Positions 11,261 through 64,000 of a stretch of DNA of 64,000 bases are shown in pieces. Below the pieces are notes generated by a model. The model was not told where the DNA came from, did no database searches, and saw nothing but the letters and a program-made list of their open reading frames with translations. Within the stretch, counting starts at the first letter, position 1. Each line of letters opens with the position of its first letter. The position numbers and the translations under genes are program-made. The stretch is from an uncultured Actinomycetota bacterium (GTDB taxonomy: Bacteria > Actinomycetota > Geothermincolia > Geothermincolales > RBG-13-55-18): NCBI GenBank assembly GCA_964462595.1, contig CAYWXM010000023.1:71543-135542 (forward strand), given 5' to 3'.

Positions 11261-12289
11261 TTAGCCCCTGAGCATCTCTAAAGTACGGCTGAGCGATTTG
11301 GCGATGAAATCCACTGTAGGTATCACGCGGGCATAGTCCATGCGTGTCGATCCCAGCACGCTCACCGTTCCGACCATCTCCTCGCCGATGGCGTACGGTG
11401 TAGCCACCAGGCTGAAAGATTGCAGTTCCTTGTAAAGGTTCTCATCTCCTATGCGCACCAGAAGCTCCTTTGAACCGAGTGCCTCGCTGAGCATGTTGAG
11501 CAGGAAGTACTGTTCCTCGAAATGCTCGAGCAGGTTCTCGATACGCTTCAGGCCCTCTCCGTCCAGATAGCGCAGCAGGTTGACAGTCCCACCCACGAAA
11601 ACCTTTTCGTACTCTTCCTCTGAGAGGATATCTCTTATCACGGATATCACCCTCGCGGTCAGGGAGGGCGATCTCAGCCTGCTTATATCGCCTTGCAGGG
11701 TCAGCTCGGCCATCTTTTCCAGCCCCCTTCCCTGTAGTTTGTGATTCAGGAAGGACTGGATCTCCTCTAGATCGATGGCCTCGTTCGAATCCCTGATATC
11801 TATCAGTTTTTTCTCCACGCGGCCCGTGTCCGTGATGATTACCAGGAGGACTACATCCTCCGCGAGATTAACCAGGTCGACGTGCTTGATGGAGTTGCGG
11901 CGCAGGCGTGGCGCTATGACCATGGCCGCAGCGCTGGTAAGACGCGAAAGCAGGGTGCTCGTCTCCTGCAGCAGGTTCTCGAGCTCCTTAGTCTTATGGG
12001 AGAAGAGGGTTATAATAGAGTTCCTTTCATCCTCGCGCAGGCGTGTCCGCCCACTCAGGCTGTCCACGTAGAACCTGTAGCCGAGGTCGGTAGGCACCCT
12101 TCCCGCAGAGGTATGGGGCTGGTAGAGGTATCCCAACCCCTCAAGCTTGCTCAGCTCGTTGCGTATGGTTGCTGCACTTACGCCCAGGTTAAGACCCTGT
12201 GCGAGGGATTTTGAACCGACCGGAATCCCGGTAGTTATATACCTGCATACTACCGCCTTCAGTATTTTCTGTTGTCTTTTATCTATCAT
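11261..12289 (-). CDS. hrcA: heat-inducible transcription repressor HrcA
   Basis: 342-aa ORF with an N-terminal winged helix (QQKILKAVVCRYITTGIPVGSKSL), full-length HrcA architecture, and a CIRCE operator immediately upstream. Confidence 0.95.
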   Translation of the reverse strand: MIDKRQQKILKAVVCRYITTGIPVGSKSLAQGLNLGVSAATIRNELSKLEGLGYLYQPHTSAGRVPTDLGYRFYVDSLSGRTRLREDERNSIITLFSHKTKELENLLQETSTLLSRLTSAAAMVIAPRLRRNSIKHVDLVNLAEDVVLLVIITDTGRVEKKLIDIRDSNEAIDLEEIQSFLNHKLQGRGLEKMAELTLQGDISRLRSPSLTARVISVIRDILSEEEYEKVFVGGTVNLLRYLDGEGLKRIENLLEHFEEQYFLLNMLSEALGSKELLVRIGDENLYKELQSFSLVATPYAIGEEMVGTVSVLGSTRMDYARVIPTVDFIAKSLSRTLEMLRG

Positions 12290-58498: not shown

Positions 58499-58573
58499 TG
58501 GTGGGCGCGGAGGGGATTGAACCCACGGCCTCTTCCGCGTCAAGGAAGCGCTCTCCCTCTGAGCTACGCGCCC
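58499..58573 (-). tRNA. tRNA-Val (anticodon GAC)
   Basis: The reverse strand reads GGGCGCGTAGCTCAGAGGGAGAGCGCTTCCTTGACGCGGAAGAGGCCGTGGGTTCAATCCCCTCCGCGCCCACCA. It forms a cloverleaf with a 7-bp acceptor stem, anticodon loop TTGACGC and encoded CCA. There is one U-U mismatch in the T-stem. Confidence 0.8.
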
Positions 58574-58646: not shown

Positions 58647-59723
58647 GTGTCTCATGCCGAATTAACCACTATGAGCAGACGAGAGAACGTGGACTTATAC
58701 GATAGCCTGTCGCGTAATCGCAGGCACCTGATATATGCCACCGCGCTACTGATGGCGGTCATCATGACCATTTCCGGTCTCGCGATACTCATCTTGCGCG
58801 ACGCCTTTGATATAGCCATCAATTTCTGGTTCCTGTGGACCATGTTCTGGCTCCTCTTCGCGGTATATGTCGTGCTACGTTATGCCCTGGGGGGGATGTG
58901 GTTACTCAATGGCGTCAAGACACTTCCTGCCTCAAAGAGAGATATTTGTATCGATGGTTCTGTTATGGCCGCTGCCTTGGCCTCGGGTATGACAGGCCGA
59001 GTCCGCATTTTCGAGATCGAGGATGACGATATCAATGCCTTCTCCCTCTCCCTGCCCGATGCCAGCTTCGCCATCTTCCTGACCGAGGGAATAGCCTGGA
59101 AGGTCGAGGAAAGAGAGCGCGTGGCGATTATCGCCCACGAGATAGCGCATATGCAGGCCGGTGACACGGCTGTTCATACCCTGATAATACGAATGGCCGG
59201 GCGCAGGTCCCTGAAAAAGATGATAAGAGGCCTTCCGAACAAGGGTTTTGTTTTCGCGAGATACGTATCTACGTCGGTTATCGCTTTCCTGTTCGCGACG
59301 ATTGTCTTTATAGAGCTGTTCGGCACCGCCAACGATCCCGGCCTCGGTCTTTCCCCGGCAGCATTCTTCTGGCTTTTCCTGTTATCGCTCTTCGTCATGC
59401 TGATGCTCTTACTTCCCCTGGCAAGCAGAGCCCTGCTGAGATTTTTTCTGGACAGGGACCGGGAATATAACGCTGATATGCATGCCGTCTTTCTCACCCG
59501 CGATCCAGATGCAGTATACAACGCCCTAAGGCTCGCGGCGGAAGACGTGCGCGACGTCATATTCCTGCCCGCGTGCTTTGACGCCCTGCTGTTCAATCCC
59601 GTTGTCGATTATTCCTCCTACAGGCCCTATCGCACCCAACCTACGATGTCGCATCGCATGCAGCGACTGTGTGAAGCCTTTCCCATGCTCATTTTGCAGG
59701 CTCAATCCAAGAGGCCCCGTTAG
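58647..59723 (+). CDS. M48-family (HtpX-like) membrane zinc metallopeptidase
   Basis: 358-aa ORF (GTG start) with TM helices, the HEIAH zinc motif (HExxH) and a downstream EYNAD third-ligand motif. Confidence 0.75.
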   Translation: MSHAELTTMSRRENVDLYDSLSRNRRHLIYATALLMAVIMTISGLAILILRDAFDIAINFWFLWTMFWLLFAVYVVLRYALGGMWLLNGVKTLPASKRDICIDGSVMAAALASGMTGRVRIFEIEDDDINAFSLSLPDASFAIFLTEGIAWKVEERERVAIIAHEIAHMQAGDTAVHTLIIRMAGRRSLKKMIRGLPNKGFVFARYVSTSVIAFLFATIVFIELFGTANDPGLGLSPAAFFWLFLLSLFVMLMLLLPLASRALLRFFLDRDREYNADMHAVFLTRDPDAVYNALRLAAEDVRDVIFLPACFDALLFNPVVDYSSYRPYRTQPTMSHRMQRLCEAFPMLILQAQSKRPR

Positions 59724-59739: not shown

Positions 59740-59813
59740 TGGAGGCGGCGACCGGATTTGAACCGGTGATCAAGGTTTTGCAGACCTTTGCCTTACCACT
59801 TGGCCACGCCGCC
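59740..59813 (-). tRNA. tRNA-Cys (anticodon GCA)
   Basis: The reverse strand reads GGCGGCGTGGCCAAGTGGTAAGGCAAAGGTCTGCAAAACCTTGATCACCGGTTCAAATCCGGTCGCCGCCTCCA, with a 3-bp D-stem and U73 discriminator typical of tRNA-Cys. CCA is encoded. Confidence 0.9.
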
Positions 59814-59879
59814 ATTTCTAAATGTCCGCATTATCGGCTGCGGCAAAAAGGTAGGCGATTTGACGCCTACCTGTTATCC

Positions 59880-59924
59880 TGGAGCGGAAGACGGGATTCG
59901 AACCCGCGACCTTCACCTTGGCAA
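59880..59924 (-). repeat. partial tRNA-Gly 3' copy (anticodon loop to CCA, 45 nt); direct repeat of the 3' half of tRNA-Gly at 62741-62785; candidate attR
   Basis: It is identical to the 3' 45 nt of the full tRNA-Gly except for one position (A versus G in the variable region). The upstream sequence cannot form the D-arm or the 5' acceptor strand. Confidence 0.8.
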
Positions 59925-60146
59925 TCCGAAACTGCGTGCATACTGTGTTTCGCCATGTTTCGCGATTTCCGCCATAACCTGCATAAAAACAATTTCCGCT
60001 CTTTCTATTTTTAACCACGTTTCGCGTTGTTTTGCAACGACCTGCTAGATATTCGCTAGAAAGAACTCACATATTTATTATTGATAGTGAGCCATAAATT
60101 TAACTAGGACGAAACGGAACTATGACAACCCCGGAAGACAGAGATA

Positions 60147-60959
60147 TTAAAGACTGCCCCAATTATGGTTTTCTTCGTCCCACTTGAGTCGCTCCTCTGG
60201 CCGTTCAACTGCCTCCAGTAGCCTATCAAGTGCTTGCTTTAGTACGTCTGGATCGGAGCTACATATCTGTAATCTTTTCGCTATCGACCCATCAGTGTCT
60301 CTAAATATTCGGAAGTCAATCTGTGTAGGCTCCGGAATCTTAGATATTTCTTTATTAGCGTTCTTACGATGCTTCAATAGAAGCAATATGCTGGCCCATA
60401 AAGCGTTAGCAATGACAGCAATTCCAATGCTCAATGCAATATTGGTGAAATCCACAATGATGCGACATGCAGGAACTGCGGCGAACTGATAAAGTCGCTG
60501 GATTCTAACTGGACCTAAACTAGTGAGTTTGCTTGCCGCCTTTTCAAGAATATCATCACTGAAATAAGCAGCGTCTGCAGCAATACTAAGGAAAGTACCG
60601 CTTCGCTTGGGGTCGATCGCATCAAGTTCTGCGATTGTCTCGCCGCACGTGAAGGAAATACCACCGGGTGCATTTATACTTGCCCAATCAGCTTCAATGG
60701 CACCCCAATCTGTTACATCGACTTCGAACTCTGCCTCAACGGCCTTTGTACCGCCAGGTAGTTCAATGACATCTGCACTGAGGCACTGAGCTTCCCACCG
60801 CTGCATGGGATCGTGATTGTTTACAAGAGGAATCAAATTCCCCTTGAGCTGTTCGACAAGCTGCCCTAGTACTTTTTCGGACAATCTAATGCCGCCATAT
60901 GCTTTAATTGGTCTATTTGTGGCAACCAAGATCTTGAGCGTCTTACGTTCCCCGTGCAT
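60147..60959 (-). CDS. hypothetical protein with a single C-terminal-proximal transmembrane helix (island cargo)
   Basis: 270-aa ORF with an N-terminal soluble domain of about 175 aa and a hydrophobic segment IIVDFTNIALSIGIAVIANALWASILLLL, followed by a tail of about 70 aa. It is lower in GC than the host genes. I recognised no family. Confidence 0.5.
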   Translation of the reverse strand: MHGERKTLKILVATNRPIKAYGGIRLSEKVLGQLVEQLKGNLIPLVNNHDPMQRWEAQCLSADVIELPGGTKAVEAEFEVDVTDWGAIEADWASINAPGGISFTCGETIAELDAIDPKRSGTFLSIAADAAYFSDDILEKAASKLTSLGPVRIQRLYQFAAVPACRIIVDFTNIALSIGIAVIANALWASILLLLKHRKNANKEISKIPEPTQIDFRIFRDTDGSIAKRLQICSSDPDVLKQALDRLLEAVERPEERLKWDEENHNWGSL

Positions 60960-61173
60960 CGTTTGCTCCCTACAAAGTTCGCCATTCCTACATGGCCTAT
61001 CTTATGTTACGCTTCGAGTTTCCTCAACATTAGTCATTCCGTCTTCTCCATACAAAGCGCCCTCAAGCCTGGAAACCGCTTGCTTCGCCTACCCCTCGAA
61101 GAGATTGCCGTAAACGTCCCAGGTCATCTTCGCGGAGGCGTGGCCCACCAAGGCCTGTATGGTCTTCACGTTC

Positions 61174-62499
61174 TCACCCTGGCTGATCAACATGCTGATG
61201 TAGCTCGATAGTATCTGATTTCATTGAAGAACCGGGATTCATCCCTGCTAAAACGCTAGCTACTCTTTGCGCTCCGCCAGAAGTTCTCCACTCGACCGCT
61301 TCTGGTATTTCGTTAAATTCAAGTAGCTGCTGCCCCCCTATTTCTTCAATCGCTTTTCGGACTTCTGAAGGTGTCGCGTAGAAATACTCCCTTCTCATAT
61401 TGACCAGGTTCAGCCGCCGGTCTGCGAAATACTTGTGTAGTTGGTTTTCAAGACCCACAGCATCATCGGAGAAAATGAGCGCATGAACATCGAAGTTGAA
61501 TGGTACACTCGCGTCCCCAAGCTCTCGCACCCGATCCATCGGCTCTAGCCTCCTGGTAAGGCCGATTTTTATAACATGTTCTCCAAAACTTCCGAAGTTT
61601 GATATTACGTATACGTATCCTGCCCTGATGTTGGCCTCTCGGTTTTCGATGCCTTCAATCGCCGCGCGGATTTCTGCCAACATAGATTCCATGTCTGCGG
61701 CCCCCTGTTCATCGCCCTTTTCACGGAGCTTTTCAAGGGTCGTCTGATAGTGAGACTGCTCCTTCTCCAACCGTCGCTTCTCCGCCTCTAATTCCCTTAT
61801 AGCTTTCTCTTCTTCTCTTTGGCGTGCTCGTTCTTCCTTTAATCGCTCCTTTTCTTCCTCAACCTTGTAGAGATAGTCTGAAGTAAGCTCTATCTCGTAT
61901 TTTCTCCAGCGATGATATTCGTCAGTAATACGCAGTTCTATCATCTTCCCAAGCTTGGCGATTGATTCGCGAGCCTTTTCCAGCCGTGAAATGGAAGATG
62001 CAAGCGTGTGAGGCTTGAGAGTTCTTACGATATTATCTGCCTCGGAATTATAAGCTCTTAGCATTAGCTTAGATAGATCATTTACGAACTTCTGGCCTTG
62101 TTTAGCAGAATTATTAAACGTGAAGTTCTTTATCGATGAAACAGCTCTACCTGATTTGACAAGTGCCTTTAAGTTGTCTTTGGTCTCAGCGAGTTTTCCC
62201 TTATAGGCTACTGCATCATCTAAAGGGTGCCTGTACTGGTATATACCGACTCCCTGCAAGATAGCCATCTCATCTGTCTCAACAATCTTGGCCTGGGCTT
62301 CCCTGACCTCTCGTTGCGCCTGGGTCAGTTGCGCCTGGGCGGTAGCCACCTGTTGCTCGGTCGCTGCAAGATTGGTGCGCATCGCCTCGACTTGCCGAGC
62401 AACCTCTACGGCTTCTACCCCCTTAAGGTACTCGACCCACTGTTTAAGATTGGCGTTCTCTGCCTCCAACTCTTCAAGCTTCTTTTTTCCAAAAACCAT
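61174..62499 (-). CDS. coiled-coil / DUF4041 / T5orf172 (MUG113, GIY-YIG-like) domain protein; putative nuclease (island cargo)
   Basis: 441-aa ORF with an N-terminal coiled coil of about 75 aa, a central region with the DUF4041 pattern and a second charged coiled coil, and a C-terminal region GYVYVISNFGSFGEHVIKIGLTRRLEPMDRVRELGDASVPFNFDVHALIFSDDAVGLENQLHKYFADRRLNLVNMRREYFYA that matches the T5orf172 domain pattern. Confidence 0.7.
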   Translation of the reverse strand: MVFGKKKLEELEAENANLKQWVEYLKGVEAVEVARQVEAMRTNLAATEQQVATAQAQLTQAQREVREAQAKIVETDEMAILQGVGIYQYRHPLDDAVAYKGKLAETKDNLKALVKSGRAVSSIKNFTFNNSAKQGQKFVNDLSKLMLRAYNSEADNIVRTLKPHTLASSISRLEKARESIAKLGKMIELRITDEYHRWRKYEIELTSDYLYKVEEEKERLKEERARQREEEKAIRELEAEKRRLEKEQSHYQTTLEKLREKGDEQGAADMESMLAEIRAAIEGIENREANIRAGYVYVISNFGSFGEHVIKIGLTRRLEPMDRVRELGDASVPFNFDVHALIFSDDAVGLENQLHKYFADRRLNLVNMRREYFYATPSEVRKAIEEIGGQQLLEFNEIPEAVEWRTSGGAQRVASVLAGMNPGSSMKSDTIELHQHVDQPG

Positions 62500-62740
62500 T
62501 GATTGTTCCTTTCTTTTATGTGTTGAATGTAACCCCCATCAACTGTAGCCAAAATCTTTTCTATTACCCCCCTCCAGTACATCATGTCCCAAGGGGGGCC
62601 AAGCTTAAACCTGGCTTCAATACACCCTCAGACTTACTGAGGCAGCCCAAGGCGGACGAACGTGTGAGGGTGACATGGGTATATTTGCTAGATTTCTGGA
62701 ACGTTTAAGGGGCCTCGGTTTCCCGAGACCCCTTCTGACC

Positions 62741-62816
62741 TGGAGCGGAAGACGGGATTCGAACCCGCGACCCTCACCTTGGCAAGGTGATGCTCTACCA
62801 ACTGAGCCACTTCCGC
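62741..62816 (-). tRNA. tRNA-Gly (anticodon GCC)
   Basis: The reverse strand reads GCGGAAGTGGCTCAGTTGGTAGAGCATCACCTTGCCAAGGTGAGGGTCGCGGGTTCGAATCCCGTCTTCCGCTCCA, a canonical cloverleaf with encoded CCA. Confidence 0.9.
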
Positions 62817-62873
62817 CTGCTTCACAACTCAAGATTCTAGCATCGCAAGGCGCGTTGCTCAAGGCTGTTCCCT

Positions 62874-63239
62874 CTACCTCCTGGCCTCTTTCTGCAACAC
62901 CTTGCTCACGATGATCAGCCTGCTCGCCCGGTCCTTGAGGGCTCTTTTGAAGTCTATGACCATCTTTTCGAAATCAGGCTCCGGCTTATACGCGTATATG
63001 GTCTCCGCGCCATCTCCCGCCCTGAACTCGTGAGTCAGTATTCCTTTAGCGGTCATGCGCTCGAGAAAAGGCTCGATATCCGAACCCAACCTCCCGATAC
63101 TCATGGCTATACTCGATGGAGATCCTACGGTATACGGGTTCTCGTGGAAAAAGAGGATCAGGTCCCAGGTTATAAAGGAGTCAACGTACTCCTCGACAAA
63201 ACCGGCTACCTGCTGATCAAGGTTTTCGAAATCCAGCAT
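62874..63239 (-). CDS. hypothetical protein (121 aa)
   Basis: An ORF with host-like composition directly downstream of the KaiC-like gene. No domain recognised. Confidence 0.45.
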   Translation of the reverse strand: MLDFENLDQQVAGFVEEYVDSFITWDLILFFHENPYTVGSPSSIAMSIGRLGSDIEPFLERMTAKGILTHEFRAGDGAETIYAYKPEPDFEKMVIDFKRALKDRASRLIIVSKVLQKEARR

Positions 63240-63266
63240 CGCGGAATCACACCTCGCTTACCTTAA

Positions 63267-64000
63267 TCACTTGAAAAACTCCTCGGCCTTCTTCAAGCGC
63301 CGCGTCACGTAAGGGTTGCCGCTCAATATGCCTTCCCTGCCCTCGAAGGCTGCCTTTACCTCTATGCCCGAGGGGGTTATCAGCATGCGGCGTATGCTTT
63401 TGTCATGGTCGGATGCGCGGTGTTTAAGGACAAACAGGGCGCGCTCGATGCTCGAGCTTATCTCAACATAGCGAAGCTGGATTATGGTGTCCACAATATA
63501 CGACAATCCCGCCTCGGCCACTGACATGTTGCCGGTAATGAAGGCGTCCTCCTGGGTAACGAGCGCCGTGATCTCGTAGCGCAGCAAACCGTTGAGGAAG
63601 GTGTACATTATCTCACGCAGCTGCACCGGTTCCTGGGTTATGCGCTCCAGCTGCGTCATCGAGTCTACGAACACCCTCTTGGCCGAAATCTCCTCTATGG
63701 TACGATCGAAAATGCCTCCAGGCTGCTGTATCTCCCTCAGGAAGACGGCGGGCGTAGTAAATACAGTTCTCAGCTTGTTCTCGCGCTCGTATGCTCGCAG
63801 ATCAAAACCAATCGAGACGGCATCGCGATAGAGCTGCCTCGGAAATTCCTCGAAGGTGATTATCAGTCCCGGCTCGTCATACTCCATGATGCCCCGGGAT
63901 ATGAACTCCATACCGATACAGCTCTTACCTGTTCCAGGCGCGCCCTTGATAACCGCGACAGAATTATATAGCAGGCCTCCCCCCAGCATATCGTCCAGAC
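63267..64000 (-). CDS. KaiC-like RecA-superfamily ATPase; the 5' end of the gene is beyond the window
   Basis: It has Walker A GAPGTGKS preceded by ...DDMLGGGL..., a Walker B-like VFVDSM motif and a KaiC/RadA-like fold. The reading frame stays open to the window edge. Confidence 0.75.
   Translation of the reverse strand, partial: LDDMLGGGLLYNSVAVIKGAPGTGKSCIGMEFISRGIMEYDEPGLIITFEEFPRQLYRDAVSIGFDLRAYERENKLRTVFTTPAVFLREIQQPGGIFDRTIEEISAKRVFVDSMTQLERITQEPVQLREIMYTFLNGLLRYEITALVTQEDAFITGNMSVAEAGLSYIVDTIIQLRYVEISSSIERALFVLKHRASDHDKSIRRMLITPSGIEVKAAFEGREGILSGNPYVTRRLKKAEEFFK

Follow-up and report, generated by a model that had tools for sequence, protein, structure and literature searches.

What is the short, compositionally distinct segment beside a tRNA-Gly gene of an uncultured actinobacterium and, if it was inserted there, what became of the integrase? 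The locus lies in a 64-kb stretch of DNA (hereafter the window; contig CAYWXM010000023.1 of an uncultured Actinomycetota bacterium, positions 71,543 to 135,542), the sequence of which is identical to Joint Genome Institute (JGI) contig Ga0643563_0000208. All positions are those of the window unless a contig is named, and the codes L002–L090 denote the related or homologue-bearing contigs that were compared with it. The segment, an island of 2,814 bp between two copies of the 3' part of tRNA-Gly(GCC), is very probably a decayed and immobilised integrative element of the tyrosine-integrase type that occupies a tRNA-Gly hotspot and has retained its cargo. The evidence consists of empty sites in relatives, a remnant of an integrase gene, attachment (att) core and arm sequences shared with a family of elements, and an intact gene for a homologue of the phage-defence nuclease SNIPE (PD-lambda-1). 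The features are listed in Table 1.

The direct repeat and composition of the island

The original prediction, made from the letters of the sequence, described an AT-rich island bounded by a 45-nucleotide (nt) direct repeat. The repeat exists and has one mismatch, but its true length is 47 nt. Its limits are the first base of the anticodon loop (TTGCCAA) on one side and, on the other, the second nt beyond the encoded CCA, and 100 shuffles yielded 0 matches of this kind by chance. Integrase core sites typically have such a boundary, precisely at the anticodon loop. The 3' half of the tRNA-Gly gene at the island is identical to that of the tRNA-Gly genes at the empty sites described below. The mismatch, at position 59911, is a T in the partial copy and a C in all the intact tRNA-Gly genes and in the partial copies of L010, L015 and L071, a distribution consistent with a post-integration mutation in a non-functional copy. 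Neither ARAGORN nor Rfam called a tRNA in the partial copy, and the possibility that the repeat belongs to a second functional tRNA gene was therefore rejected. A third att copy or tandem elements within the island were also ruled out, as no further core-like sequence was found with up to 14 mismatches allowed.

The GC content of the island was 0.472, versus 0.563 in the remainder of the window (z = -6.2 against 571 segments of equal length), and its tetranucleotide distance was 0.407, versus a background of 0.175 +/- 0.02 (about 11 standard deviations above). The island is a compositional outlier, as had been proposed, but the shift is real and moderate (9 points of GC), and the description "conspicuously" AT-rich overstates it. 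Two intact open reading frames (ORFs), of 441 and 270 amino acids (aa), are present on the minus strand. A promoter and terminator scan returned fewer sites than shuffled sequences and was not informative.

Empty and occupied sites in relatives

Relatives of the locus were sought with the adjacent M48 peptidase as the anchor. A scan of genome contigs with the single M48 peptidase sequence gave no matches, but an alignment-based query succeeded and recovered M48 relatives at 45–55% aa identity from metagenomes and named metagenome-assembled genomes (MAGs) of uncultured Actinomycetota. Five distinct loci were empty: L008, L009, L011, L072 and L074, with L008 counted once because its coordinates and scores are identical to those of the named MAG contig L070. 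The order at these sites is tRNA-Val, M48 peptidase, tRNA-Cys, a hairpin spacer of about 65 nt and an intact tRNA-Gly. Genes for a 121-aa protein and a KaiC-like protein (90–95% aa identity) come next in L008/L070, L011, L072 and L074, whereas the L009 contig is too short to reach them. The spacer hairpin of the empty sites differs from the hairpin that follows the tRNA in the island. These five relatives bear out both an insertion at the 3' part of tRNA-Gly and the proposed ancestral arrangement, in which tRNA-Gly stood next to tRNA-Cys.

Other relatives are occupied. In L010, L015 and L071, the partial tRNA-Gly ends at the same base as in the window (the boundary falling between TTGGCAA and T) and is followed by a homologous arm. 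The arm, about 146 nt long in the island, is common to these three other elements at the tRNA-Gly site, and they share conserved blocks such as GTTTTGCCATGTTT and CTGC. In the window, it holds repeated GTTTCGC/CCATGTTT motifs, which are putative integrase arm sites. A different insert of about 2.8 kb, with degenerate partial tRNA copies, occupies the tRNA-Gly site of L013 (9127–11926) and L012 (9080–11785), and the stretch 62684–62819, which spans the tRNA-Gly end of the island, is 89% identical to positions 11870–12005 of L013. The tRNA-Gly site, filled by elements with the homologous arm in L010, L015 and L071 and by a different insert in L013 and L012, is therefore a hotspot repeatedly used by one element family.

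The L013/L012 insert has genes for two proteins, a PAS histidine kinase of 504 aa and one of 163 aa with multiple transmembrane (TM) segments, and a degenerate tRNA-like fragment within it adjoins tRNA-Cys. A 70-nt repeat in L013 (9847–9916 and 11870–11939) takes in the post-tRNA hairpin. This insert looks like the outcome of successive integrations followed by decay.

It could be argued that the 2.8 kb are native host DNA and that the repeat arose by duplication and decay of a tRNA gene, with no insertion. The clustering of tRNA genes at this place (Val, Cys, Gly) and the host-like genes found there in L013 would fit such an origin. However, it is already contradicted by the five empty loci, by the strongly deviating composition and tetranucleotide use, and by the presence of both an integrase remnant and a family-specific arm; a repeat beginning exactly at the anticodon loop also speaks against it. 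We consider the probability of a native origin to be negligible.

The integrase remnant

The island had been reported to contain only two genes and no recombinase. There are indeed two intact ORFs and no functional integrase, but the 3' remnant of a tyrosine integrase gene between the two ORFs had been overlooked. The minus-strand translation of 61205–61002 reads SYISMLISQGENVKTIQALVGHASAKMTWDVYGNLFEG, a stop, AKQAVSRLEGALYGEDGMTNVEETRSVT and a second stop. The remnant keeps the region of the catalytic tyrosine, has an in-frame stop at 61089–61091 and has lost the first 314 or so codons. It matched the phrog_1 integrase (E=5.6e-8) and, weakly and below the curated cut-off, positions 138–167 of the 172 of Pfam PF00589 (Phage_integrase; E=0.0037). 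It also matched residues 315–368 of the L015 integrase (78% identity, E=7e-23, tblastn). This full-length tyrosine integrase of 381 aa occupies the same tRNA-Gly position in L015, its gene lying about 98 nt away from the partial tRNA. The remnant also had 81% nt identity to the integrase gene of L090, an element of about 8.5 kb with genes for an HTH_17 protein, a primase-type Zn-ribbon protein and the integrase. No other integrase homologue was found anywhere in the window, and a scan of viral contigs with the L015 integrase gave no matches. With codons ~315–381 only and an internal stop, the island is therefore the remnant of a member of this element family rather than an active member.

The integrase gene of L090 (9625–10428) itself lacks the N-terminal 55 or so residues, and its stop (GHLF-stop-G) lies one codon from that of the window (GNLFEG-stop). 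The loss of the last 27 or so residues of the integrase may be tolerated, or recurrent in the family.

Three possibilities had been offered for the island: a decayed element, a satellite-like element and a minimal mobilised defence cargo. The integrase remnant, the attP-type arm and the full-length integrase of L015 at the same site support the first of these. A satellite-like minimal element, moved out and in again in trans by the integrase (and excisionase) of a related complete element entering the same cell, has several points in its favour: both 47-nt cores are nearly intact, the arm on the attR side is also conserved in three other elements, related integrases occur in the same clade, and two variants of the arm region in contigs otherwise 99.99% identical show recent recombination at this end. 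However, no contig of the same population showed an empty site or a circular junction, the island was not seen at any second location, and all eight contigs with the exact SNIPE protein had the same neighbours or ended at the repeats, where breaks are as expected for k-mer assemblies. The remnant points to decay and not to an architecture designed without an integrase, one of the variants (L002) lacks the arm and 8 nt of the core, and the mutation of the attR core is absent from every tRNA-Gly. Mobilisation in trans is thus improbable, and we favour the decayed element.

Over about 12 kb, the L002 variant (JGI 3300001533) departs from the window only by one mismatch and one replaced stretch, in which window positions 59917–60070 (154 nt, comprising the arm and the last 8 nt of the core) give way to 76 nt of unrelated AT-rich sequence (L002 12430–12505). 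The boundary at 60070 is also the end of the homology with L058. This replacement suggests a recent cassette-like recombination at the arm end.

The SNIPE homologue

The larger ORF, previously described as a DUF4041/T5orf172 nuclease-like gene, encodes a homologue of PD-lambda-1. The 441-aa protein matched the PADLOC profile PDLC03976 with an E value of 2e-110 (residues 9–408 against positions 68–470 of 491), and DUF4041 (3e-19) and T5orf172 (GIY-YIG nuclease; 2e-14) were both detected above the curated Pfam cut-offs. GYVYVISN, KIGLTRR, E351 and N364/N367 are invariant among 10 homologues; the catalytic residue of the E. coli protein is E414. The N-terminus is a coiled coil. No TM segment is present, with a maximum Kyte–Doolittle (KD) hydropathy over 19 residues of 0.91, and the ORF cannot be extended upstream. 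The N-terminal sequence, beginning MFGGKKKYEELEAEN, is common to the closest relatives, of 419–433 aa, which are collinear with the window protein from the start to the natural C-terminus. The window protein is therefore untruncated, an ordinary representative of a TM-less subgroup. The last 8 codons are an out-of-frame read into the integrase remnant, and the junction with the remnant lies within a few bases of the natural SNIPE stop.

The closest homologue (86% aa identity) is encoded on L084, with DNA homology covering 61213–62517, and, among homologues with a named taxon, the closest comes from Candidatus Geothermincolia. A scan of viral contigs with the SNIPE query returned only relatives at 39–42% and was uninformative for this element. 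L084 (1–13584; Ga0643564_0000044, also a contig of sample 3300077317) is a mobile element with RepO, DnaB, HTH_17 and HTH_3 genes, from the same sample series as the window. It also has an HSDR_N-like gene and, directly downstream of SNIPE, a gene for a 160-aa protein composed of three helix-turn-helix (HTH) repeats.

PD-lambda-1, now named SNIPE, is a membrane-bound DUF4041 and GIY-YIG nuclease of E. coli, in which DUF4041 binds DNA and the tape-measure protein, and phage DNA is cleaved during genome injection (PMC13190303). A version of the E. coli protein from which the TM segment was deleted (delta-TM) is toxic, but 34% of SNIPE homologues have no predicted TM segment and presumably reach the membrane via other N-terminal features (PMC13190303); the TM anchor does not, therefore, define the family. 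The window protein resembles the E. coli one in its full-length PADLOC match, in the same order of DUF4041 and T5orf172/GIY-YIG, and in its occurrence as a single gene on mobile DNA. It differs in lacking the N-terminal 60 or so residues that hold the TM anchor, which places it among the TM-less third of homologues, in the 8-residue C-terminal tail acquired by read-through into the integrase remnant, and in its host, an uncultured actinobacterium rather than E. coli; the window protein is known from its sequence. By analogy with the E. coli system, the present function of the island in this host is likely to be phage defence by the SNIPE homologue.

The 270-aa protein family

The second ORF encodes a protein of 270 aa with no match in Pfam, PADLOC, PHROGs or the PDB sequences, so that the searches with the cargo proteins identified SNIPE and left its neighbour without an assignment. 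An exhaustive HMMER search found homologues in 496 clusters (191 at E<=1e-30; clusters counted at 50% identity), versus only 7 homologues in a word-indexed search, which was misleading. No match to Pfam was obtained at E<=1 with 76 diverse members. The protein thus belongs to an undescribed family for which there is no Pfam model. Across the 76 members, Ser102 is invariant and His49 near-invariant. The protein consists of an N-terminal domain with these two residues, a hydrophobic helix (174–196) and a small C-terminal alpha/beta domain. The helix (KD 2.21) is strong in the window copy only and is not conserved in the family; the earlier description as membrane-anchored applies to this copy.

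The DNA from 60070 to 61030, which includes the gene for the 270-aa protein, is 84% identical to L058. A more distant homologue (38%) is encoded in L060–L063 between tRNA-Pro(CGG) and a 400-aa integrase, in an element with int, HTH_17, DUF3631 and PrimPol genes. The contexts in L058 and L060–L063 indicate that the 270-aa gene is an accessory gene of integrative elements, adjoining int and the att site.

In L058 (5702–9151), the homologue (77%) directly follows a truncated integrase, as in the window. The preceding gene encodes an unrelated cargo protein of 573 aa with a weak match to squalene-cyclase-like repeats, and downstream lie the N-terminal 68 aa of a PifA-like defence protein, cut by an insertion sequence with a DDE transposase. 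L058 is a second instance of the order cargo gene, truncated integrase, 270-aa homologue.

The AlphaFold model of the protein had a mean predicted local distance difference test (pLDDT) score of 69.5. Foldseek comparison of this model with the PDB gave no significant match, but a weak match to prohead proteases was obtained in BFVD (E~0.03, prob 0.97), with weak fold matches also to T4 gp21 and the herpesvirus assemblins. A profile-profile comparison with ten HK97-type proteases gave marginal statistics (P=1.3e-4 over 90 columns). In this alignment, His49 is paired with His65 of gp4 and Ser102 with Ser114 of gp4, both invariant in the 10-sequence protease alignment; we take His65 and Ser114 to be the catalytic pair of gp4. 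The N-terminal domain is therefore possibly HK97 prohead-protease-like, and the protein a putative Ser/His hydrolase, which we offer as a lead and not as a classification. The possible likeness to HK97-type prohead proteases (MEROPS S78) consists of the placement of the conserved His and Ser and of the weak fold matches. However, the family has no Pfam S78 match, the protein has an extra helix and a C-terminal domain, and the homologues sit in small integrative elements, not in phage head modules: their neighbours are integrases, tRNA genes and unknown genes and not the portal and capsid genes.

It is conceivable, but speculative and rather unlikely, that the family comprises widespread stand-alone Ser/His hydrolases related to prohead proteases that act on capsid assembly (in defence or helper interference) or work with the TM-less SNIPE, the island being a two-part anti-phage module. 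If true, the module would target both DNA entry and head maturation.

The two genes could also form one system, in which the hydrophobic helix of the 270-aa protein tethers or regulates the TM-less SNIPE at the membrane, in place of the N-terminal anchor of the E. coli protein. The absence of a TM segment from the SNIPE homologue, the toxicity of the delta-TM E. coli protein, the strongly hydrophobic helix of the adjoining protein and the presence of both genes, intact, on the same strand are in keeping with such a system. However, the integrase remnant lies between the two genes, whose juxtaposition is thus the product of rearrangement. The genes beside the closest SNIPE homologues (P0010 and P0012) are unrelated ones, for an HTH-repeat protein and a nucleotidyltransferase, and SNIPE is absent from all the other contexts of 270-aa homologues examined. 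The helix, in addition, is not a family trait, and the TM-less third of SNIPE homologues are thought to use their own N-terminal features. We thus regard this tethering as very improbable, and a "split SNIPE", with the membrane anchor supplied by a neighbour, has no support from gene neighbourhoods or helix conservation. Any functional link between the two genes is unlikely, given the remnant that stands between them and the lack of co-occurrence of their homologues.

Proposed history of the island

The element family probably targets tRNA-Gly(GCC), over the stretch that runs from its anticodon loop to its 3' end, in a Geothermincolia-like clade of uncultured Actinomycetota. The repeat geometry, the integrase of the family and the arm suggest that a tyrosine integrase inserted the element at the anticodon-loop core. 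Integration would have duplicated the 47-nt core, the copy carried by the element restoring the tRNA and the displaced host copy coming to lie where it is now, beside tRNA-Cys. A later deletion or replacement would have taken the first 314 or so int codons together with the other genes expected by analogy with L090 (HTH_17/excisionase-like and primase-type), leaving both core sites, one arm, the 3' end of int and two intact cargo genes; we infer the order of the deletions. The island is no longer able to move by itself. Intact cargo ORFs with conserved residues beside a destroyed int would be the pattern expected from selection for the cargo.

Several points weigh against this account. Since the inserts of L013 and L012 hold host-like genes (the PAS histidine kinase), some of the DNA inserted at the site is not clearly mobile. 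Nor does the left boundary of the SNIPE cassette have an independent definition. SNIPE activity was demonstrated only for the TM-anchored E. coli protein, whereas the window copy is TM-less and the delta-TM E. coli protein is toxic. Finally, no complete element of the family was recovered at tRNA-Gly, as the contigs stop at the element ends or a short way in: the L015 integrase occurs in three contigs, each of which terminates 177 nt upstream of int, and those of L010 and L071 end within 0.4–0.9 kb of the arm. The ancestral gene content and the number of deletions have, for this reason, been inferred.

The island has the hallmarks of tRNA-integrated elements of the P4 type or the actinomycete integrative and conjugative element (AICE) type: a repeat from the anticodon loop to the 3' end, a tRNA restored by the copy of the element, a foreign composition, empty sites, an int gene adjoining the att site (in L015) and the reuse of a hotspot. 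It differs from them in having about 68 codons of integrase, no excisionase, replication or transfer genes, and two genes in 2.8 kb, as a fossil and not an active element. As in P4-like satellites and prophages, a defence gene and an accessory gene lie beside an integrase and an att site, and a different mobile element from that environment bears the closest SNIPE homologue. However, the window is devoid of satellite hallmark genes (primase, capsid-redirecting genes, cos or pac), and a kinship with satellites is unsupported.

Table 1. Positions in the window of the tRNA genes, att sequences and genes of the tRNA-Gly island
Feature	Position	Strand	Evidence or remarks
tRNA-Val	58499-58573	-	ARAGORN and Rfam
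tRNA-Cys(GCA)	59740-59813	-	ARAGORN and Rfam; ancestral neighbour of tRNA-Gly
Host spacer with hairpin	59814-59877	-	Between tRNA-Cys and the attR-side core
attR-side core (displaced 3' part of tRNA-Gly)	59878-59924	-	Anticodon loop to CCA plus 2 nt, one mismatch
attP-type arm of the element family	59925-60070		Adjoins the partial tRNA; alignable with L010, L015 and L071
270-aa protein gene	60147-60959	-	Intact ORF
Tyrosine integrase 3' remnant (~68 codons)	61002-61205	-	Translation, PHROG, Pfam, tblastn
PD-lambda-1/SNIPE homologue, 441 aa	61174-62499	-	Intact ORF; PADLOC, Pfam
Element DNA beside the tRNA	62518-62738	-	GC-rich hairpin (62707-62734) just after the tRNA; remainder without recognised feature
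attL-side core	62739-62785	-	3' 45 nt of tRNA-Gly plus 2 nt downstream
Intact tRNA-Gly(GCC)	62741-62816	-	ARAGORN; Rfam tRNA, 73.5 bits

Neighbouring genes

The neighbour genes in the window include those for RimP, NusA, EF-G and ThrRS, which show that the host is bacterial. The genes for the 121-aa protein and the KaiC-like ATPase (62874–63989) have 90–95% identity across the relatives, versus 46–54% for the M48 peptidase (58689–59723) in the same relatives, a striking difference in rate between genes that are neighbours across the tRNA cluster. The M48 peptidase orthologues of L012 (7954–8946) and L013 (8001–8993) have an in-frame stop (SRYI-stop-ITIL), which may reflect a pseudogene, or an assembly or recoding issue.

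Implications

The island is of a known kind: a tRNA-integrated element has decayed, and a known defence gene has persisted in it. The 270-aa family is previously undescribed. As a fairly ordinary genomic islet, it leaves current concepts unchanged, the 270-aa family being its sole less ordinary part. It nevertheless provides a clear and well-bounded example of the fixation of a defence gene, in which an element inserts into a tRNA hotspot and loses its integrase to decay, with only the useful cargo left intact. It also extends the SNIPE/PD-lambda-1 family, in its anchor-less form, to uncultured Geothermincolia-like Actinomycetota from soda-lake samples, and it draws attention to an uncharacterised, integrase-associated family of 270-aa proteins that may merit a study of its own.

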